The notes beneath the pieces were generated by a model. It worked only from the letters and a program-made list of their open reading frames with translations, was not told where the DNA came from and did not search any database. A stretch of 64,000 nucleotides of DNA from Candidatus Bathyarchaeota archaeon. Its GTDB lineage: Archaea > Thermoproteota > Bathyarchaeia > 40CM-2-53-6 > RBG-13-38-9. Made by a program: the position numbers and the translations under genes. Every line of letters begins with the position of its first letter. Within the stretch, counting starts at the first letter, position 1. Positions 16,848 to 26,143 of this stretch are shown here, piece after piece. Where the stretch lies: contig JAOZGX010000047.1 in the NCBI GenBank assembly GCA_026015185.1, positions 3,475 to 67,474 on the forward strand, read 5' to 3'.

Positions 16848-16965
16848 GGGCCGGTAGTTCAGCCCGGTATACCTTTAATACAAAGGGCCAAAGAACGTCC
16901 GGTTTGCAAGGTATTTTACCCAAAATGCCGGAAAGCCGCGGGTTCAAATCCCGCCCGGTCCACCA
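16848..16965 (+). tRNA. tRNA-Ala (UGC) with two intron-like insertions (D-arm ~23 nt; anticodon-loop region ~18 nt), CCA encoded
   Basis: Acceptor stem GGGCCGG/CCGGUCC with a G3:U70 pair. Anticodon stem UCCGG/CCGGA with loop UUUGCAA, and T-arm GCGGG-UUCAAAU-CCCGC. 118 nt against 77 nt mature. Confidence 0.8.
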
Positions 16966-18249: not shown

Positions 18250-19533
18250 TTGAAAGTGATCGCAGATTTTCATATACATTCTAGATATAGCCGTGCAACC
18301 AGTAAGAATATGGATCTAATTGAAATCTCACGTTTCTGCAAGATTAAAGGATTAAACCTAATCGGCACCGGAGATTTTACTCACCCCAAATGGCTAAGCG
18401 AATTGAGAGAAGGATTAACGGAAATTGATGGAAGCGGTTTGTATAGACTCTCACATAATGAGAAGGACCCCACGCTTTTCATGATAAGCGGAGAAGTTTG
18501 CACAATCTTTAACCGTAATGAAAAGAGCCATAGAATTCATCATGTAATCCTTGCACCAAGTTTAGATAATGCAGAACAAATATCTGATGCTCTTCAGAAA
18601 TATGGAGACCTTGATGTAGATGGAAGACCCTTCCTCAAGATGAATGCTGCTCATTTAGTTGAAATCATCTCAGAATTATCAAATCAAAATGTAATTTTTC
18701 CTGCTCATGCTTGGACTCCGTGGTATAGTGTCTTCGGCTCAATTTCAGGATTTGATTCTTTAGAAGACTGCTATGAAGATTTTTCACATAAGATTTTTGC
18801 ATTAGAAACTGGACTTTCTTCGGACCCGTTAATGAATTGGAGAGTAAGTGATTTAGATAATTTGGCTTTACTATCAAACTCAGATAGTCATTCAGCCTGG
18901 CCTTGGAGGATTGGTAGAGAGGCTAATGTCTTTGAACTGAATAAAATGACATATAATGATATAATTGATTCAATAAAAAGCAGAAATGATAATTTTCTTT
19001 TTACAATAGAGACTAATCCTGCCTATGGAAAATATCATTGGACAGGACACAGAAATTGTGGAATTTCTTTCCCTGCAAAAGATGCAATGTCTCGGGGCAA
19101 TGTTTGTCCCATATGTCGTAAAAAATTGACTAAAGGTGTTGAACAACGGGTTGAGGAAATGGCCGACCGAGAAATCGGTTATAAACCTTCAAATGCCAAA
19201 GACTTTTTCCATCTTCTTCCACTTTCAGAGATAATAGCATTTATACTTGGAAAGGAACAATTGGCCAGCCCTAAAATCTGGGAAGTATATAACTCTCTTA
19301 TTAAAAAATTCGATAATGAATATTCCGTACTTATTGATGCAAAAAAAGAGGGTATAACGATGGTTGCTGGAAAAGAAATTGCTGACACAATAATTGGGAT
19401 AAGAGAAGGGAGAATGAGAGTCGAGCCTGGTTATGATGGTGTTTATGGTAAACTCGAAAAAAAAGACAAATTAGACAGACAAAAAACAAAAGAAGTCAAG
19501 AAGATTACTAATCTTGATGATTATATTAACTAA
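18250..19533 (+). CDS. Endonuclease Q-like (PHP domain + C-terminal zinc ribbon)
   Basis: N-terminal DFHIHSRYSRATS PHP motif, as in Pyrococcus EndoQ, and a C-terminal CPICRKKL zinc ribbon. 427 aa. Confidence 0.6.
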   Translation: MKVIADFHIHSRYSRATSKNMDLIEISRFCKIKGLNLIGTGDFTHPKWLSELREGLTEIDGSGLYRLSHNEKDPTLFMISGEVCTIFNRNEKSHRIHHVILAPSLDNAEQISDALQKYGDLDVDGRPFLKMNAAHLVEIISELSNQNVIFPAHAWTPWYSVFGSISGFDSLEDCYEDFSHKIFALETGLSSDPLMNWRVSDLDNLALLSNSDSHSAWPWRIGREANVFELNKMTYNDIIDSIKSRNDNFLFTIETNPAYGKYHWTGHRNCGISFPAKDAMSRGNVCPICRKKLTKGVEQRVEEMADREIGYKPSNAKDFFHLLPLSEIIAFILGKEQLASPKIWEVYNSLIKKFDNEYSVLIDAKKEGITMVAGKEIADTIIGIREGRMRVEPGYDGVYGKLEKKDKLDRQKTKEVKKITNLDDYIN

Positions 19534-19544
19534 GGATATAGGAT

Positions 19545-20162
19545 CTATTCAAAATTCTGGTCCAGTTTCTTTTCTTCCGATTCTTTGATAATATCTTCTA
19601 CATCTTTTTTTTCTAGAAACAAAAAGTTCAGATTTTGTTCGATCGATTTTGATGCTTTTGTATATTTGCTACTCTCAATTTTTCCTTCTTTCTTTCCAGT
19701 TCTTATCTCTACTAAAAAGTTTGTTAATTCATTGATTTGTCTGTCTAATTCTTCTTGTCGTTGCTTCATGCTACTAATGAATTCATTATTCTGTCCCTTC
19801 AATGAATCTATCGATTGCTTCTGATTGGCTTTGAGATTTTCATAGATTTCTTTACTTACTTCTTCCTTCTCCAGCATTGCCTCCAGGGCATCCATTCTGC
19901 TTCGGAATGTATTGAGCTCTTTTATCATTTGTTCAGCCTGAATTTTCCATTCTGGTATGATTACTATCTCATCTTTATTCGTCATCATTTGCTCTGCGGA
20001 ATATTTGACTAATCTGCCTTCACTTTGATCTACCTTAATGGATTCTAATTCGCCATCAGAATTCTTTAAAATCGCCACAACTTGACCTAAATAACGTCCA
20101 TAGATGTCCCTAGTCTTTTTTCCAAAGAAATGTTTCATTTCAATATTAGAAAATGAAAACAT
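19545..20162 (-). CDS. cdvA: CdvA (PRC-barrel + coiled-coil cell-division protein)
   Basis: N-terminal PRC-barrel-like region (GRYLGQVVAI...IVIIPEW) followed by a long coiled coil and an acidic C-terminus. Adjacent to a cdvB. Confidence 0.7.
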   Translation of the reverse strand: MFSFSNIEMKHFFGKKTRDIYGRYLGQVVAILKNSDGELESIKVDQSEGRLVKYSAEQMMTNKDEIVIIPEWKIQAEQMIKELNTFRSRMDALEAMLEKEEVSKEIYENLKANQKQSIDSLKGQNNEFISSMKQRQEELDRQINELTNFLVEIRTGKKEGKIESSKYTKASKSIEQNLNFLFLEKKDVEDIIKESEEKKLDQNFE

Positions 20163-20200: not shown

Positions 20201-20818
20201 TCAGATTTTTGATTCCTTAGTAGGTATTGGTGGAATCTCTGGAAGCGTTTCCTTCATCTTCTGTTCAGCTACAGCCGTGGCTTCATCCAAGATTTTATTA
20301 CCTTCTTCTGTTGGAATTGATGTATCAACTGATTGATCAGTAGCATCTCCTATCTCTACAACCATATTTTGTAATGTTTCACCAATGTCTGATAATTCAT
20401 TAGAGATGTCAGGAAGAATGCTCACAAGCTGTGACTTGATTCCGTCAATTACGCTAAGAACAGATCCCATTAGATATGTGTACTCTCCAAAGTCTTTAAT
20501 CGTCTCCAGTCGTAATTTTACCTGTTCCAGAGCAAGTTGACTTTTTATTGTTGTCATCATAATTTTCCGTATTTCTGCACATTCGTTCGCATACATTGTA
20601 GCCATTTCATTTTTCTTTGATTGCAAAGCAGAAACACATTTCTTGTATAATTCTTTGTCTCTATTTTGTAATTGATATGATTTTCTCTCTAAATGCTTAA
20701 GTTGAACAGAAAGTCGATGGAGAGTCGAAGTAATCTTTCGTTTCATTGGGGTTGGATGTATAGCTTCCTTTATTCTTTCTGTAAATGATGGTTTTTTTCT
20801 AAACACTATTTTTCTCAA
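20201..20818 (-). CDS. cdvB: CdvB (ESCRT-III/Snf7 family) with proline-rich MIM2-like C-terminus
   Basis: Snf7 core (MYANECAEIRK.., LALEQVKLRLETIKDFGE) and a C-terminal LPEIPPIPT motif. Confidence 0.8.
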   Translation of the reverse strand: MRKIVFRKKPSFTERIKEAIHPTPMKRKITSTLHRLSVQLKHLERKSYQLQNRDKELYKKCVSALQSKKNEMATMYANECAEIRKIMMTTIKSQLALEQVKLRLETIKDFGEYTYLMGSVLSVIDGIKSQLVSILPDISNELSDIGETLQNMVVEIGDATDQSVDTSIPTEEGNKILDEATAVAEQKMKETLPEIPPIPTKESKI

Positions 20819-20828
20819 CTCTTTATTT

Positions 20829-21509
20829 TTATTTTATTTTTGGTGTTTCCAAAAATATTTCCTTATTTGCCATTTTAGCAATCTTAAGATTATTAGTGGT
20901 CAATAAGACCGTACGATCTCGTAAATGTTTAAGGCCTTTTAGAAATGGAATAAAGGTATTTATTGTTGGAGAATCAAGATTGGATACTGGCTCATCCAAG
21001 ATAAGAATTGGTGGATCCAAGATAAGTGCGCGAGCGATCTCAGTTTTTTTTCTTTCACCAGCACTGATTTCATTTGGTAGGAACTTGGATTTTTTTGATA
21101 TTCCAAAAAATTCCAGTAGCTCTTTAACTCGAGATTTCTGCTCAGAAAATGGAATCTTTTTTAGTAGCATTGGCAATTGGATGTTCTCATAAACAGTAAG
21201 ATCAGATATCAAAGTTGATGTTTGAAGAACTAATCCCATTTTTTCTAATCTTAGTCTTGTTATCTTTCTATCTCCAATTTTTGATAAATCTTGGCCAATA
21301 ACAGATATAACTCCCTCGCTCGGTTTTTCCAATCCTGTTAAAATATTTACTAGAGTAGTCTTTCCGGTTCCGCCCTCTCCAATAATTACAATAAAGTCTT
21401 TCTCATTTAAGCTGAAATTAAGACCATTAAAGAGACGCACAGCTAATCCATTCCTTTCGAACCTTTTATGCAGATTCTCAACATTGATCAGATATTCAAA
21501 ATCTTTCAT
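20829..21509 (-). CDS. ABC transporter ATP-binding protein, FtsE/LolD/MacB-like with degenerate motifs
   Basis: Walker A GEGGTGKTT and Walker B ILILDEP. The signature is the atypical SAGERKK, and an H-loop His is apparently absent (LLTTNN). Its stop overlaps the start of the downstream permease. Confidence 0.7.
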   Translation of the reverse strand: MKDFEYLINVENLHKRFERNGLAVRLFNGLNFSLNEKDFIVIIGEGGTGKTTLVNILTGLEKPSEGVISVIGQDLSKIGDRKITRLRLEKMGLVLQTSTLISDLTVYENIQLPMLLKKIPFSEQKSRVKELLEFFGISKKSKFLPNEISAGERKKTEIARALILDPPILILDEPVSNLDSPTINTFIPFLKGLKHLRDRTVLLTTNNLKIAKMANKEIFLETPKIK

Positions 21510-22000
21510 CGATTAAGCATCTCAGGAATATTCAATTTGGATATTTTTATCAGAGGGGATAGGCAACCAATTAAAGCTGAGATCATAACAAGAATCAATA
21601 CATCTATTATCAGCATCAATCTAGGTGCTACATTAAATAATATCATAAGAGCGATATTTCCGATAACAAATCCTATTATCGATCCTATTAAACCTATGAT
21701 TAGAGATTTGATAATAAAAAAGGTCCATAAAAAGAGCCTTTGGAATCCAATTGCACGAAAGATACTTATATCTCGGGTTCTTTGTGCAAATTCTGAATTC
21801 ATGCATAAGATAATCACACTTGTTATCAGCAATACAGCTGAAGCCATGAGAATATAATTTAATGATTGCATATTGAGCGTATTCAATTCTGTTGTAATCA
21901 CAATTAACAATACTATAGTACCTACATTCAATAATCCCAAAATTAGATTGGGAGATCGAATTTTGAATACCTGCCTAAAAATAAAAAGAAATGTGTTCAT
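21506..22000 (-). CDS. Minimal FtsX-like ABC permease domain (4 TM, no large extracytoplasmic domain)
   Basis: 164 aa. FtsX/MacB permease motif AQRTRDISIFRAIGF. Four predicted TM helices. Confidence 0.6.
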   Translation of the reverse strand: MNTFLFIFRQVFKIRSPNLILGLLNVGTIVLLIVITTELNTLNMQSLNYILMASAVLLITSVIILCMNSEFAQRTRDISIFRAIGFQRLFLWTFFIIKSLIIGLIGSIIGFVIGNIALMILFNVAPRLMLIIDVLILVMISALIGCLSPLIKISKLNIPEMLNR

Positions 22001-22007
22001 TTTATCA

Positions 22008-22490
22008 TCAACCCATACTGACGTCTTTAGTCAGTAATTTTAGGAAGTTTCCAGAATCTCTATTTCCATAGGTCTTTATGACAGGGGCAGTATATTCCAT
22101 CTTAACATTGAAGATTTTAAGTTTCGATATTGCCTCATTAATTTCAGCTTTATCTTTGCCTACTAGAAGAATTATGCTTTCAGGAGAGCCTAAAGAGCTT
22201 ATCACTTTCATTGTTTGAGGGATCGCCATAATTTTTTTGAGTATTTCTTCTCTCTCAGAGTTTGGTGGAAGAGTCAATCCTACATACATTTGTTCATTTA
22301 GGCCAAGTTTTTCAAAATCCAATTCCACAGTATAATCCTTAATTATTCCTTGCTTCTCCATTTTGTTTATTCTATATGCTACAACGTTTGGATGAAGGTT
22401 TAGTTTTTTGCCGATCTTAACAAGTGAGGTTTTAGAGTTCTCAATTAATTCAGACAAAATCTTTAAATCAATATAATCAATGAACTTCAT
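22008..22490 (-). CDS. Lrp/AsnC-family transcriptional regulator
   Basis: N-terminal HTH (DLKILSELIENSKTSLVKIGKKLNLHPNVVAYRI) plus a C-terminal RAM domain. 160 aa. Confidence 0.75.
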   Translation of the reverse strand: MKFIDYIDLKILSELIENSKTSLVKIGKKLNLHPNVVAYRINKMEKQGIIKDYTVELDFEKLGLNEQMYVGLTLPPNSEREEILKKIMAIPQTMKVISSLGSPESIILLVGKDKAEINEAISKLKIFNVKMEYTAPVIKTYGNRDSGNFLKLLTKDVSMG

Positions 22491-22505: not shown

Positions 22506-23645
22506 TTAAAGAGCTTTAAACTCCTCAAACCACTTCTCATAATGCCTGATAGTATTAGGAGAAATGCTTGGTTTTCTTCTCTTGAAAATTTCTGAGAAAT
22601 CATTCATGTCAATATATCTTGGAGCAGTATTCTTGTCTTCCGGATTGCCATTCTCAAATAGATCTCTTACCACTTTGATTTGAGCTGATTGAAAGATATC
22701 TCTTATATCGCTTCCAGAGTAGCCAGCAGTCATTTTTGAAAGTTCATTGAAATCAACATTGGGAGATATCTTAAGATTTTTTGAAAACAGCTTAAACATT
22801 TCTGATCTTGATATAGCATCAGGTAAAGGAACAAAGATCCTTTTCTGAAACCTTCTAATGAATGGGTGATCCAGTGCCCAAGGTTTATTGGTGGCACCTA
22901 TAACGTAAGAATGTGTAGATTGGTTTTTGTCCAAAATCCCGTCCATTTCTTTAAGAAATTGATTTCTCGCTCTAGCTTCGCCACCCACTTCACCAACACT
23001 ATATCTAACTAAAGAATCTATCTCATCAATGAAAATGATCGCTGGTTGATCATTAGTGCTTTTTTTCTTAGCATCTTTAAAAAGTTGTGCAACATTCTTT
23101 TCGGATTCACCAAGCCATTTTGACATTATTGAAGCTGCATCGACACAAAAGAAAGTTGCATCGATTTCGGTAGCAATAGCCGCAGCCAGTAATGTTTTTC
23201 CACAACCAGGAGGACCAAAAAACAATATACCTCCTGGCCACCCAAGTGGAAACAGATCAGGTCTTTTTGCAGGAAAAACTATTGATTCTTCTATAGCCTT
23301 TTTTGCTACTTTTAAATTAGCAATGTCGCTCCATCTAACGGAGGGCTTTTCGGTCAATACTAATTGATCAAATTTAGCTTTACCTTCATCAGAGGGTAAT
23401 AAAGTTGAGTCTTGACTTTCTGGTTGGCCACTTAAGGATTCAATCCTTTTTTTGTAAGACTCCACATGTTCCATGTATATTTTATTTTGAGGTGAATTCG
23501 GATATAGTGCACAAAGTTTCAGTAAAATTTCAATAGCCCTTTGAAATTTTGCAGTCGCTAATCCTCTGGAACCTTGTTGATCTAATTGAATAGCCTCTGA
23601 AGCATATTTGACAGCTAATTTTTCTAATTCTTCAGAAGCGGACAT
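22506..23645 (-). CDS. cdvC: CdvC / Vps4-like AAA+ ATPase with N-terminal MIT domain
   Basis: MIT-like helical N-terminus, Walker A GPPGCGKT, Walker B IIFIDEID and second region of homology. ATG at 23645 is preferred over the upstream GTG. Confidence 0.85.
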   Translation of the reverse strand: MSASEELEKLAVKYASEAIQLDQQGSRGLATAKFQRAIEILLKLCALYPNSPQNKIYMEHVESYKKRIESLSGQPESQDSTLLPSDEGKAKFDQLVLTEKPSVRWSDIANLKVAKKAIEESIVFPAKRPDLFPLGWPGGILFFGPPGCGKTLLAAAIATEIDATFFCVDAASIMSKWLGESEKNVAQLFKDAKKKSTNDQPAIIFIDEIDSLVRYSVGEVGGEARARNQFLKEMDGILDKNQSTHSYVIGATNKPWALDHPFIRRFQKRIFVPLPDAISRSEMFKLFSKNLKISPNVDFNELSKMTAGYSGSDIRDIFQSAQIKVVRDLFENGNPEDKNTAPRYIDMNDFSEIFKRRKPSISPNTIRHYEKWFEEFKAL

Positions 23646-23678
23646 AAACACCACAAGACCATTTTTTATTCAAGCTTA

Positions 23679-24233
23679 TTATTCGATTATCACTTTTCCT
23701 TCCTTTTTCAGGTAATCTACCGCTCTTTTCACATCCTCTGGAGTAACTTCTAACCAAGAGGCACATTCTGTAATGCTTAAATCACCTTTACGTTCTTTCA
23801 GATAATCATAAACTCGCTCATACAATGGCAATGCTTCTCCATCCGTTGTTAAAGCTACAGGTTCAGGTTTGTTTGACTCTTTGGAGAATGTTGGGAAATC
23901 TGGTATATCGGGGAATTGTTCTTTAATTCTCTGTTCAGCAAGTATATTTGATTCTTCTAAAACCTTTTTTGCTTCTTGATTTGCAGCAACTTCCTCAATA
24001 TTTCTTACCGATGGTACAGCTGCTTCGGTACTTAACTCGTTTAGCATAGAGTTGACATCTTCAATACCACTAGCCACTTCGGGAACAAAATCTGAAATCC
24101 TATTTTCAGTTTCTTTTAAAATGCTCATTACTGGGTTTAGATTTGTCAGAACGTCTTTAAATTCGGAAATCCTTTGAAGTCTAATAACAACCTTTTCTAA
24201 AGAAAGCTGACTACTTATTGCTAGTTTTACCAT
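23679..24233 (-). CDS. cdvB: CdvB paralog (ESCRT-III) with MIM2-like motif and C-terminal winged-helix-like domain; real N-terminus encoded upstream (to about 24446) without canonical start
   Basis: The annotated ORF starts mid-Snf7 domain. The upstream in-frame sequence encodes ...LKDKLSQVIYQLNDQ...AKIYANECAEIRK, contiguous with MVKLAISSQ. The C-terminus contains FPDIPDFP and LSITECASWLEVTPEDVKRAVDYLKKEG. Confidence 0.6.
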   Translation of the reverse strand: MVKLAISSQLSLEKVVIRLQRISEFKDVLTNLNPVMSILKETENRISDFVPEVASGIEDVNSMLNELSTEAAVPSVRNIEEVAANQEAKKVLEESNILAEQRIKEQFPDIPDFPTFSKESNKPEPVALTTDGEALPLYERVYDYLKERKGDLSITECASWLEVTPEDVKRAVDYLKKEGKVIIE

Positions 24234-24465
24234 TTTCCGTATTTCTGCACATTCATTCGCATAGATTTTTGCATGTGAAAAATCCTTAGTAACTTGAGCG
24301 CCTACACACTTTTGGAGGATTTCTTTGTCTCTTTGCTTAAGTTTTGATATAGAGTTTTCTAGGTTTTCTAATTGATCATTGAGCTGGTAAATTACCTGCG
24401 ATAATTTATCTTTAAGAGATTTAGAGGGGAGAATCTTTCCCTTTATCCTCTCGAGGATTGAAATC

Positions 24466-25458
24466 TCAAAAATCCTCCCTTATTTTAACTATAATTTTAT
24501 CTTTTGGTTCATCTGAAGTTGTTTGGGTTTCTTCTTCCTCAATGGTTGAAGAAGTCATGTCGTCTTTTGGTTCTTCTGAAGTGGCCTGGGTTTCTTCTTC
24601 ATCTATGGTTTCTTCTTTATCCGTGGTTTCTTCTTCTTCCTCTTCTTCTTCCTCTGTTGAAGTTACATCATCCTTTAATTCTTCGTCATCCGTGGTTTTT
24701 TCTTCATCCATGCTTGTAGAGGTCATGTATTCCTTTGATTCATCTAAAGTTGTTTGGGTTTCTTCTTCCTCAATGGTTGAAGAAGTCATGTCGTCTTTTG
24801 GTTCTTCTGAAGTGGCCTGGGTTTCTTCTTCCTCTGTTGTTGAAATAACTACCTTAGTTTCGTCAAAGCTAATAATTTCTTTAGAAATGTCATCAATCTT
24901 ATTTTTCTCTTTTAGTGCACTCTCAATATGCTTTTGGATGATTTCTTGACAAGGTTTGAATGTCACCTCGTCCATTTCTCCCGAATGAAATTGCATTTTA
25001 TTATTGGCAAAAATAATTTGAAGTTCATTTATTTTATTGATCAGATCTTCCTTTCTCTTTTCTGCTTTTTCTAAAATATTTTCACGCGACTCTTTTATTT
25101 TTGAAAATGAGCTTTCATAATTGCTTTTCAATGATTTATAGAATTCTTCACGTATTTCTCCAGATTTATAAAGTTCATCTAGTGCATTGATTCTCTTTCT
25201 CAAAGTATTAAGCTGTCTTAGTATCCCTTTTGCCTCTTTTTCCCATGGCGGCAGGCAAATAATTCGCCCTTGCTCAATAGCCACTTGATTTATAGGGTAC
25301 TCAATGAATTCGCCTTTTCCTGATAGTGTCTTAATGGATTCAGCTTTATTATTAGCATCTAACTCAAGATTAATTATCTTGCCTATTGTTCTTCCGTAGG
25401 CATCAAAAACAGACTCGCCTAAGTATTTCTTAATTTCTTCCAAATTTTTTTCCTCCAA
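24466..25458 (-). CDS. CdvA-like paralog with long acidic Thr/Glu-rich repetitive C-terminal tail
   Basis: N-terminal PRC-barrel-like region plus coiled coil, homologous to 19545-20162 (IICLPPWEKEAKGILRQLNTLRKRINALDE vs IVIIPEWKIQAEQMIKELNTFRSRMDALE). Then about 130 aa of TTEEEETQ(A/T)TS(E/D)EPKDDMTSS repeats. Confidence 0.6.
   Translation of the reverse strand: MEEKNLEEIKKYLGESVFDAYGRTIGKIINLELDANNKAESIKTLSGKGEFIEYPINQVAIEQGRIICLPPWEKEAKGILRQLNTLRKRINALDELYKSGEIREEFYKSLKSNYESSFSKIKESRENILEKAEKRKEDLINKINELQIIFANNKMQFHSGEMDEVTFKPCQEIIQKHIESALKEKNKIDDISKEIISFDETKVVISTTEEEETQATSEEPKDDMTSSTIEEEETQTTLDESKEYMTSTSMDEEKTTDDEELKDDVTSTEEEEEEEEETTDKEETIDEEETQATSEEPKDDMTSSTIEEEETQTTSDEPKDKIIVKIREDF
24500..24600. 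repeat. Direct repeat copy 1 (~100 bp, ~95% identical to 24731-24831) inside the CdvA-like tail coding region
   Basis: catctgaagttgtttgggtttcttcttcctcaatggttgaagaagtcatgtcgtcttttggttcttctgaagtggcctgggtttcttcttc recurs with 2-3 substitutions. Confidence 0.85.
24731..24831. repeat. Direct repeat copy 2
   Basis: See copy 1. This encodes the repeated peptide KDDMTSSTIEEEETQTT. Confidence 0.85.
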
Positions 25459-25474
25459 TTTTATTTTTTTAATA

Positions 25475-26143
25475 TCAGGTTTGTGATTGTTCTCTGGTTC
25501 TATAATCCGAGGCTTGAGTGGAATCTGATTCCATAGATGTAAAGTCTGGGAATTTCTCTTTCACTCTCTGCTCAGCCACTGTTTCAGCCTCGCCTAAAAT
25601 TTTGCTAGCTTCTGAGCTTGGTGCTTCTGTATTAATATCTTGACCAGTGGCTTCACCTATCTCAACTACCATACCATTGAGTGTCTCCCCAATATCATCA
25701 AGTTCATAGGACATTTCAGGCATTATACCACTGATTTGTGTCTTCACAGATCTCACGACTTCGGTAACAGGTCCCATTAAAGCAGCAAATTCTCCAAATT
25801 CACGAATTGTTTCTAATCTTAATGATACTTGTTCTAAGGCAAGTTGACTCCTAAGAGTTATTGCAGCCATCTTTCTTACTTCAGCACACTCATTAGCGTA
25901 CATGGCAGCTCGAGCAGAGTCTTTTGTCATTTGGGATGAGACACATTTATCAAATAATTCTCTGTCGTGTCGTTGCATCCTCATTACAGCATTTTCTAGC
26001 TTATTTTGTTGAGTTCGTAACCGGTAAATAGTTTTCGAAATTTTTTCCTTAAGACTCGGTTGCTGCTGTAGTATACCTGAGAATTTTATATTAACGGGTG
26101 GACTTTCATCTTTATCCCAGTTTTTTATCCTATTACTTGGCAA
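25475..26143 (-). CDS. cdvB: CdvB (ESCRT-III/Snf7 family)
   Basis: Snf7 core (MYANECAEVRKM, LALEQVSLRLETIREFGE) and a C-terminal FPDF motif. 222 aa. Confidence 0.8.
   Translation of the reverse strand: MPSNRIKNWDKDESPPVNIKFSGILQQQPSLKEKISKTIYRLRTQQNKLENAVMRMQRHDRELFDKCVSSQMTKDSARAAMYANECAEVRKMAAITLRSQLALEQVSLRLETIREFGEFAALMGPVTEVVRSVKTQISGIMPEMSYELDDIGETLNGMVVEIGEATGQDINTEAPSSEASKILGEAETVAEQRVKEKFPDFTSMESDSTQASDYRTREQSQT

Follow-up and report, generated by a model that had tools for sequence, protein, structure and literature searches.

What does a small ABC (ATP-binding cassette) module do in the middle of an archaeal cdv gene cluster? The question is raised by a stretch of 64,000 nucleotides of bathyarchaeal DNA (the window, by which we mean that whole stretch), where two overlapping minus-strand open reading frames (ORFs), encoding an FtsX-domain membrane protein (21506-22000; 164 aa) and an ABC ATPase (20829-21509; 226 aa), are embedded among genes of the ESCRT-III-type Cdv machinery. 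To our knowledge, the membrane tethering and the regulation of archaeal ESCRT-III (CdvB) are only partly understood, with CdvA as the only known membrane adaptor, and we know of no integral-membrane or nucleotide-switch partner of this system besides Vps4/CdvC. A preliminary description, prepared from the sequence of the window, had singled out the pair as a minimal FtsE/FtsX-like module with degenerate ATPase motifs, possibly non-hydrolytic, and as a hint at a membrane component of Cdv division.

We find that the two genes encode a pared-down ABC module of type VII (MacB/FtsX fold), specific to one lineage and located in the cdv operon of a subset of the Bathyarchaeia. The module is real, conserved and essentially undescribed, and it is both lineage-restricted and optional. 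Its subunits presumably form a complex of two transmembrane (TM) proteins plus a pair of nucleotide-binding domains (NBDs), (TM)2(NBD)2, and judging from sequence and gene arrangement this complex is probably to be seen not as a normal transporter but as a putative, optional aid to the Cdv machinery.

Conserved linkage to the cdv genes

In the window the cdv block reads, 5' to 3' and entirely on the minus strand, cdvB1-cdvA1-cdvB(wH)-cdvC-lrp-TM-ABC-cdvB2-cdvA2, nine genes in which wH stands for a C-terminal winged helix, lrp encodes an Lrp/AsnC-family protein and TM-ABC is the pair in question; more of them are cdv genes than had at first been recognized. The coordinates and lengths of the two ORFs and their 4-nt overlap are exactly those first described, the overlap being read directly in the window sequence as ATGA. 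The placement of the pair between cdvB and cdvC, given at the same time, needs refinement: cdvB2 does lie directly downstream, but the upstream neighbor is lrp, with cdvC one gene further. The junctions cdvC-lrp, lrp-TM, TM-ABC, ABC-cdvB2 and cdvB2-cdvA2 measure 15, 7, -4, 10 and 38 nt, gaps so small from cdvC onward that there is no obvious room for internal promoters, and this spacing predicts that the pair is co-transcribed with the cdv operon. The same five junctions measure 15, -29, -4, 10 and 9 nt in locus L013, and 22, 22, -1, -17 and 27 nt in locus L001, and every lineage has them tight or overlapping.

Further loci were reached through orthologs of the ATPase, orthologs of the TM protein, a scan of a genome collection and the most divergent members of the family. 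Readable contexts were obtained for about 25 loci, all with the same gene order; wherever a source is named it is a metagenome-assembled genome (MAG) of the Bathyarchaeota/Bathyarchaeia, and an ATPase 100% identical to that of the window carries the NCBI label ‘Candidatus Bathyarchaeota archaeon’. The full order cdvB-cdvA-cdvB(wH)-cdvC-lrp-TM-ABC-cdvB2-cdvA2 is present in L001-L019, L023, L037 and L060, while L020 and L059 are partial and consistent with it; in L004 the TM gene had gone uncalled, its ORF being present at L004:9528-10004. The flanks differ between the window, L004/L006/L011, L001 and L013, but the block itself stays intact. It is bordered in the window by oxidoreductases and AFOR on one side and by genes for a Fer4 protein, a tRNA, an aminoacyl-tRNA synthetase, PGK, GAPDH and a thermosome on the other, and in other MAGs by APS kinase/AdoHcyase and ProRS/S26e/ThrRS, by CDC48, or by glycosyltransferases. 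No ortholog of the pair outside a cdv operon was found among the contexts recovered. The genome-collection scan, which used the subgroup TM alignment and a single narrow pattern, returned four loci, all from Bathyarchaeota, and under-samples taxonomic breadth.

A membrane subunit without an extracytoplasmic domain

The membrane protein had been described as a 164-aa FtsX-like domain with an R-x-R-D-I-x-I-x-R-A-x-G motif and no large extracytoplasmic domain, which both profile and model bear out; its sequence at the motif is RTRDISIFRAIG (R74-G85). The FtsX C-terminal domain PF02687 matches it with 45.1 bits against a gathering score of 25.5, and in an AlphaFold2 model of the single chain (pLDDT 79, pTM 0.70) an N-terminal amphipathic helix (residues 2-11) is followed by TM1 (16-38), TM2 (45-73), a coupling helix (75-84), TM3 (88-122) and TM4 (130-154). 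MacB, FtsX, LolC and HrtB carry an extracytoplasmic domain of 100-200 aa between TM1 and TM2, whereas the window protein has a short loop of about 6-10 residues at this site; across all non-redundant members of the family the equivalent segment has 9-11 residues, and no other region is less conserved (0.31). The extracytoplasmic domain (Porter with or without Sabre/X-lobe), through which mechanotransmission is carried out in type VII systems, is absent from every family member examined. Among the features that define the type VII superfamily, the module therefore has the PF02687 domain, the four-TM bundle with coupling helix and the adjacent NBD of the LolD/MacB/FtsE group, but lacks the hallmark domain on the outside.

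A Foldseek comparison of the model with the PDB retrieved essentially only type VII TM domains (LolE, YtrF, HrtB, FtsX, MacB and BceB; probability 1.00). The best size-matched structural match is the bundle of HrtB (7w7c_B; TMq 0.71, TMt 0.73), which is also the closest solved relative by sequence profile. Among the FtsX equivalogs only FtsX_actino matches the protein, with 15.9 bits against a cutoff of 250, and the LolE and LolCE models reach 17-20 bits against cutoffs of 362-540. A word-indexed search with a diverse alignment gave 28 homologs of 155-171 aa, and an exhaustive hmmsearch of 1.84 billion representative proteins gave about a dozen clusters that align end to end (145-168 aa); below these the scores fall sharply, to some 2,900 FtsX/MacB permeases of 400-900 aa that match only profile positions ~40-162 (TM2-TM4). 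A truncated or split permease was ruled out, given that all homologs measure 145-171 aa and align end to end with the family profile. The family evolves fast, its members being 23-47% identical to the window protein and the family as a whole reaching down to ~17-25%.

Conservation along this protein is uneven. The mean top-residue frequency is 0.73 in the coupling-helix region and in the cytoplasmic C-terminal tail, 0.46-0.48 in the TM helices, and 0.31 and 0.43 in the outer loops. Within the conserved motif (R74-G85) and its surroundings R76, D77 and G85 are invariant and F81 and A83 are also conserved, and the region aligns with the ER.REIG..(K/R)A.GA motif of HrtB and Spr0694-0695. In the family alignment the TM helices and outer loops contain no conserved polar or charged residue, L31, position 60 and G110 being the only conserved positions there. 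In solved type VII systems it is the coupling helix that makes the NBD contact. With conservation focused on this helix and on the C-terminal tail, selection appears to act on the cytoplasmic, NBD-facing side of the protein, and not on an outward-facing or intramembrane binding site.

These observations bear on an alternative in which the two genes encode a small, self-contained exporter or membrane extractor, comparable to HrtBA or YbbAP, that passes a hydrophobic or lipid-like substrate through a lateral gate in the dimer of four-helix bundles. The nearest solved relative of the membrane protein is a heme exporter, whose TM bundle is also its best size-matched match, and the source annotations name an antimicrobial-peptide or lipoprotein-release permease, both of which favor such an activity. 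The complete absence of the extracytoplasmic domain and the lack of conserved polar or charged residues in the helices and outer loops argue the other way.

Two observations on the wider family may be added. A separate-looking lineage (P0095; L021/L022) has an FtsX protein of 168 aa, likewise without extracytoplasmic domain, that adjoins an Fe-alcohol-dehydrogenase-like gene followed by an ABC ATPase, and the domain may thus have been lost more than once among type VII permeases. One family member, P0044, carries the NCBI label ‘[Eubacterium] cellulosolvens’ and probably represents a contaminant or mis-binned archaeal contig in a bacterial assembly.

Clade-wide changes in the ATPase motifs

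Neither the Pfam ABC_tran match of the ATPase (6e-31) nor the PF02687 match of its partner is due to chance. The best NCBIfam models for the ATPase are LolD (4e-53) and FtsE (1e-45), all under their cutoffs: the LolD equivalog scores 180.1 bits against 307.75, and the FtsE equivalog TIGR02673, which scores lower, 155.6 bits against 264.85. In the PDB, LolD (3e-39) is followed by YtrE, MJ0796, BceA and MacB, with FtsE at ~3e-29. Orthology with FtsEX is ruled out by these equivalog scores and by the PDB ranking, so that the label ‘FtsE/FtsX-like’ is appropriate at the superfamily level but not beyond it: neither the FtsE nor the FtsX equivalog cutoff is reached, and LolD, HrtB and YtrEF are closer.

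Motifs were numbered on the window protein and read by gap-free alignment to E. coli LolD and by comparison of 17-37 sequences (Table 1). Walker A and Walker B are present, as had been noted, the Q-loop is Q96 and the D-loop is VSNLD (N177-L-D179). The SAGERKK signature and the missing H-loop His (Asn206), reported with them, proved to be real and to be conserved as deviations in all orthologs; at the H-loop, ‘llTTNNlkiak’ of the window pairs with ‘lvvTHDlqlak’ of LolD, the His being present in LolD and all other solved relatives. The degeneracy of the signature had been overstated, however, since the LolD/MacB-type consensus is LSGGE(R/Q)QR and a Glu at the fifth position is normal in this subgroup; the true deviations are the replacement of the first Gly by Ala and of QR by KK.

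The clade of ATPases with these changes is compact (P0006-P0019 at 44-100% identity, with members drawn from loci down to 41%). All of its ~20 distinct sequences have the signature [IL]-S-[ALFV]-G-E-x-[KR]-[KR] and T-N at the H-loop, and the members added later conform to it (L020, SAGEIRK and ATN; L023, SFGEAKK and TTN; L037, SVGERRK and ATN). Canonical motifs occur in the next-best ATPases, at 37% identity or less, where T-H is found in all 11 outgroups and LSGG[QE] in ten, the remaining one having LSVGE. Specific to the clade is a C-terminal motif, A-[ND]-[KR]-E-I-x-L-x-x-P, and invariant within it are the Walker A Lys, the Q-loop Gln, the Walker B Asp-Glu, the D-loop and the signature residues Ser149 and Gly151. 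As the same changes run through the entire clade while the catalytic residues are intact, they are selected features of an otherwise intact catalytic site; local motif decay was ruled out by the identical deviations across the whole motif table. Neither of the two findings that the preliminary description named as damaging to its reading, orthologs with canonical motifs and no linkage to cdv genes, or a permease that is part of a larger disrupted gene, was made.

It could still be asked whether the locus is an artefact of annotation or a remnant in decay, made up of a shortened permease and a crippled ATPase that have no function. The very short permease, the off-consensus motifs and the fast evolution of the membrane protein would fit this picture, but conservation effectively refutes it: both ORFs are intact and of uniform length, the coupling helix is conserved, the 4-nt overlap is kept, and the same deviations are fixed down to 41% identity in the ATPase and ~17-25% in the TM protein.

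A more substantial alternative is an ATPase that binds ATP and is essentially non-hydrolytic, serving with two degenerate homodimer sites as a static or slow-cycling scaffold by which the membrane is marked for assembly of the Cdv proteins. In a homodimer, the altered signature and the missing H-loop His would affect both composite sites, and in HlyB and MalK little activity is left after a His-to-Ala mutation at this position. Such changes, when they occur in heterodimeric ABC proteins, mark degenerate sites that hold ATP for long (PMC7756269). Against this stands the invariance of Glu173, Lys50, Q96, the D-loop, Ser149 and Gly151, whereas in degenerate sites loss of the His usually goes along with loss of the catalytic Glu; moreover, His-to-Asn and His-to-Gln mutants of the consensus site of ABCC1 retain wild-type-like transport (PMC7756269). 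Given the retained Glu and the tolerance of Asn in ABCC1, loss of hydrolysis, which had been raised as a possibility, does not follow from the motifs alone. We consider the non-hydrolytic scaffold distinctly improbable, and altered ATPase kinetics in the clade plausible.

A possible membrane platform for CdvB2 assembly

Type VII ABC systems that act as mechanotransducers and not as transporters provide a precedent for how the module may work, FtsEX in cell division among them (PMC5985334, PMC11627006). ATP binding would close the NBD dimer, and the conserved coupling helix would relay this closure to the bare four-helix bundle, as it does elsewhere among type VII systems. Since there is neither an outer domain to be moved nor a conserved polar site facing outward or within the membrane, the productive output probably lies on the cytoplasmic or membrane-proximal side. 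It could take the form of an ATP-gated platform in the membrane, recruiting, anchoring or timing the assembly of CdvB2, and perhaps of CdvA2 too, by a logic like that of FtsEX engaging FtsZ and FtsA, without orthology between the systems. The changed signature and H-loop would probably tune the lifetime of the ATP-bound dimer, and hydrolysis need not be lost.

By analogy with these systems we suggest such a cytoplasmic or membrane-proximal platform tentatively, as a reading that is quite possible if not yet probable. The more specific proposal, that the module is a dedicated ATP-gated adaptor or regulator for CdvB2/CdvA2 and a convergent counterpart of FtsEX with mechanotransmission inverted toward the cytoplasmic and membrane face, is a good deal more doubtful. 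If the adaptor reading is true, no prokaryotic ESCRT-III system was known before to have a partner that is both integral to the membrane and nucleotide-driven. Its position in the cdv operon makes it a concrete candidate for a membrane partner, and one that can be reconstituted.

An optional part of the cdv cluster

As a control sample independent of the ABC genes, metagenome loci were reached through CdvB2 alone and then classified by gene order. Two of them (L023, L037) have the full nine-gene block, 14 bathyarchaeal loci read cdvB(wH)-cdvC-lrp-cdvB2, TM-ABC being absent and lrp directly adjoining cdvB2, and more distant loci carry only cdvB-cdvA-cdvB(wH)-cdvC. Because sister-group loci have cdvC-lrp-cdvB2 without the pair, the TM-ABC module is an optional accessory that a cdv cluster can do without, and not a core Cdv component. 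The initial suggestion of a membrane component of Cdv division is thus upheld insofar as every readable ortholog lies in a cdv operon, but it does not apply generally, as the 14 loci without the pair demonstrate.

This distribution weighs against a dedicated partnership with CdvB2, and so do several further points. A sensitive search with hidden Markov models confined CdvA2-type genes to the ABC-bearing loci, with none located 3' of cdvB2 in the ABC-less loci, where the cluster stops at cdvB2 and unrelated genes follow. The co-variation of TM-ABC and CdvA2 was considered as functional evidence but was downgraded after a control and bootstraps: an MJ0043_C-like neighbor shows the identical pattern (18/18 ABC-bearing loci against 0 ABC-less loci), and in neighbor-joining trees the two architectures are roughly sister groups (CdvC bootstrap 59-71%). 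One gain or one loss together with a breakpoint past cdvB2 would suffice to produce the pattern, and with only one or a few gains or losses supported by the trees, and the same pattern in an unrelated gene, the co-variation is not independent evidence. The loci with the pair all come from one archaeal class and some of their housekeeping neighbors are syntenic too, so that part of the conservation in gene order reflects inheritance. The proposed link between the module and the Cdv proteins is drawn from genomic linkage, the catalytic core of the ATPase is complete and compatible with an ordinary transport cycle, and extraction of hydrophobic substrates from the membrane is a function of type VII systems whose outer domains are small, HrtBA among them.

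An exporter could have come to lie in the operon by insertion and inheritance, or because lipid handling is useful in membrane remodelling, in either case without contact to Cdv proteins, and the Lrp/AsnC protein might regulate it. Regulators of the Lrp type commonly adjoin transporters. The intact catalytic core and the optional status of the module within the Bathyarchaeia are in keeping with an export function, as is the ability of an Asn in place of the H-loop His to support transport in ABCC1 (PMC7756269). However, lrp does not belong to the pair alone; it lies between cdvC and the pair in all ABC-bearing loci that reach this position, and it stays between cdvC and cdvB2 in the 14 ABC-less loci. 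In addition, the pair was never found away from a cdv operon among the loci recovered, and several lineages show overlaps of the translational-coupling type that join it to lrp upstream and to cdvB2 downstream. Weighing these points with the features of the membrane protein, we judge an autonomous exporter, the chief competitor of the platform, to be unlikely, though by no means far-fetched. The Lrp/AsnC protein itself could be a regulator of the operon or a structural winged-helix partner. A gene of this type, with a winged helix-turn-helix and a RAM-type domain, is also seen in L024-L036, L043 and L046, where it often overlaps or abuts its neighbors.

How far the suggested platform for CdvB2 matters beyond its hosts should be interpreted with caution. 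FtsZ homologs are encoded in Bathyarchaeia (PMC9723716), and the role of the Cdv proteins in these organisms, in division or in other membrane remodelling, is therefore itself unproven. The hosts have not been cultured, only part of one class carries the module, and close relatives can dispense with it, so that little can be learned from it about Cdv-based division at large.

Features of the window

The features of the cdv block and of the two module proteins are collected in Table 1.

Table 1. Genes of the cdv block in the window, in order of transcription, with the regions of the two module proteins discussed in the text.
Feature	Position	Strand	Basis
CdvB1, first gene of block	25475..26143	-	NCBIfam CdvB1/B2 1.1e-62
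CdvA1 (PRC barrel, CdvA coiled coil, acidic Thr/Glu-rich repeat tail)	24466..25458	-	domain matches
CdvB with C-terminal wH	23679..24464	-	~261 aa only if the start is ATT 24464
CdvC/Vps4 (MIT, AAA, Vps4_C)	22506..23654	-	NCBIfam CdvC 9.5e-154
Lrp/AsnC-family winged helix-turn-helix protein	22008..22490	-	HTH_24 and HTH_AsnC matches
FtsX-domain membrane protein, 164 aa, type VII ABC TM subunit without extracytoplasmic domain	21506..22000	-	Pfam PF02687 1.2e-11
TM1-TM2 extracytoplasmic loop, residues 39-44	21869..21886	-	model secondary structure; six residues
Coupling-helix region, residues 74-87, RTRDISIFRAIGFQ	21740..21781	-	most conserved part, regional conservation 0.73
Cytoplasmic C-terminal tail, residues 155-164, KLNIPEMLNR	21509..21538	-	conservation 0.73; N157, I158, E160, L162 conserved
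ABC ATPase, 226 aa, LolD/MacB/FtsE-type NBD group	20829..21509	-	Pfam ABC_tran 6e-31
Walker A GEGGTGKTT, residues 44-52 (K50)	21354..21380	-	motif alignment
ABC signature, non-canonical, I-S149-A150-G151-E152-R-K-K, residues 148-155	21045..21068	-	motif alignment
Walker B ILILDEP, residues 168-174, catalytic Glu173 kept	20988..21008	-	D172, E173 invariant
H-loop position, Asn206 for conserved His	20892..20894	-	gap-free LolD alignment
CdvB2, ESCRT-III/Snf7 paralog without wH, 10 nt 3' of ATPase	20201..20818	-	Snf7 4e-7; NCBIfam CdvB1/B2 1.5e-52
CdvA2, short CdvA paralog (205 aa), without acidic tail	19545..20162	-	CdvA coiled-coil 1.8e-11; NCBIfam CdvA 1.3e-21

Some neighboring genes show features of their own. 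The conserved N-terminal part of the winged-helix cdvB (~77 residues; 24233-24464, minus strand) has no ATG, GTG or TTG start, and its frame is open back to an ATT at 24464, 9 nt past a GGAGG motif and just past the cdvA1 stop. In L001 (232-462) the N-terminus is again ‘ISIL...’ with no standard start, while the counterpart in L004 starts with TTG; gene callers shorten the protein to 182-184 aa. This arrangement probably reflects a conserved AUU start or a tight coupling to cdvA. The tail of CdvA1 (24466-24950, minus strand) is long and rich in Thr, Glu and Asp, is encoded by degenerate 18- and 63-nt repeats and ends in ...IIVKIREDF. According to a 2024 ESCRT survey, Glu-rich CdvA-like proteins of Bathyarchaea are encoded away from the cdv locus (PMC11188069), whereas in the window the acidic-tailed CdvA1 sits within it. 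An antisense Ser-rich ORF (24458-24949, plus strand, 163 aa) was dismissed as an artefact of the repeat in this tail.

The MJ0043_C-like gene of the window (18250-19533), transcribed divergently, encodes 427 aa with an HxH N-terminus and a zinc-ribbon-like CPICRKK motif; in the P0031 subgroup (L009, L013-L016, L018, L019) it is apparently broken into pieces of ~133 aa. A tRNA match in Rfam (16848-16962, plus strand; 49.5 bits, 115 nt), not called by ARAGORN, is probably an intron-containing archaeal tRNA.

Comparison with known systems

The only earlier notice of the module that we found in the literature is one sentence by Ravi et al. (2024; mSystems, PMC11237479, main text and Text S2.2), which very probably concerns the same gene arrangement. 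That sentence does not assign the TM protein to the FtsX/MacB family, does not mention the missing outer domain or the motif changes, and is silent on the Lrp gene, on the restriction to part of the Bathyarchaeia and on the sister architecture without ABC genes. The main text of the 2024 ESCRT survey mentions neither the module nor the Lrp gene and, as far as that text extends, TM-ABC is not reported in surveys of Sulfolobales or Thaumarchaeota (PMC11188069).

By sequence and fold the closest solved relatives are HrtBA, YtrEF, LolCDE and MacB, which share with the module the coupling-helix motif (E/R)x(R/K)(E/D)I(G/A/S)(I/V)(L/F)xAxG and a C-terminal tail motif. They differ from it in that a substantial extracytoplasmic domain separates TM1 from TM2 and that the LSGG(E/Q) signature and the H-loop His are present, and none is linked to ESCRT-III genes; a review of the MacB family places an extracytoplasmic domain between TM1 and TM2 in every topology class (PMC5985334). 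The module can thus be seen as a natural experiment on type VII ABC systems, in which the NBD, the coupling helix and the four-helix bundle are kept while the domain that normally does the work is deleted, and it helps to ask what a bare four-helix bundle can do. In its motifs it resembles the degenerate sites of TAP1/2, CFTR, ABCC1 and Pdr5, where the H-loop His and the signature are likewise replaced naturally and the replacements kept by selection. In those exporters, however, one degenerate site has one consensus site as its partner and has usually lost the catalytic Glu as well, whereas here both sites of the presumed homodimer are changed and the catalytic Glu is kept.

With FtsEX the module shares the superfamily fold, in which a four-TM permease with an FtsX domain is combined with an NBD of the LolD/FtsE type, and the two-gene organization, and FtsEX likewise is tied genetically to a division machinery, as a transducer and not a transporter whose cytoplasmic side engages cytoskeletal division proteins. 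The differences are equally clear: the module has no Porter/X-lobe domain and hence no means of activating EnvC or a hydrolase, and archaea have no peptidoglycan; the gene for the permease precedes that for the ATPase; the associated machinery is ESCRT-III/CdvA, not FtsZ/FtsA; and signature and H-loop are non-canonical. A last comparison concerns the bacterial PspA/Snf7 operons that include an ABC ATPase and a permease (Ravi et al., 2024). These also contain solute-binding and OmpA-domain proteins and have been read as transport-linked, and we liken them to the present locus by gene linkage alone; in both, a gene of the ESCRT-III superfamily is linked to an ABC system, which suggests that membrane remodelling and ABC modules are recurrently associated.

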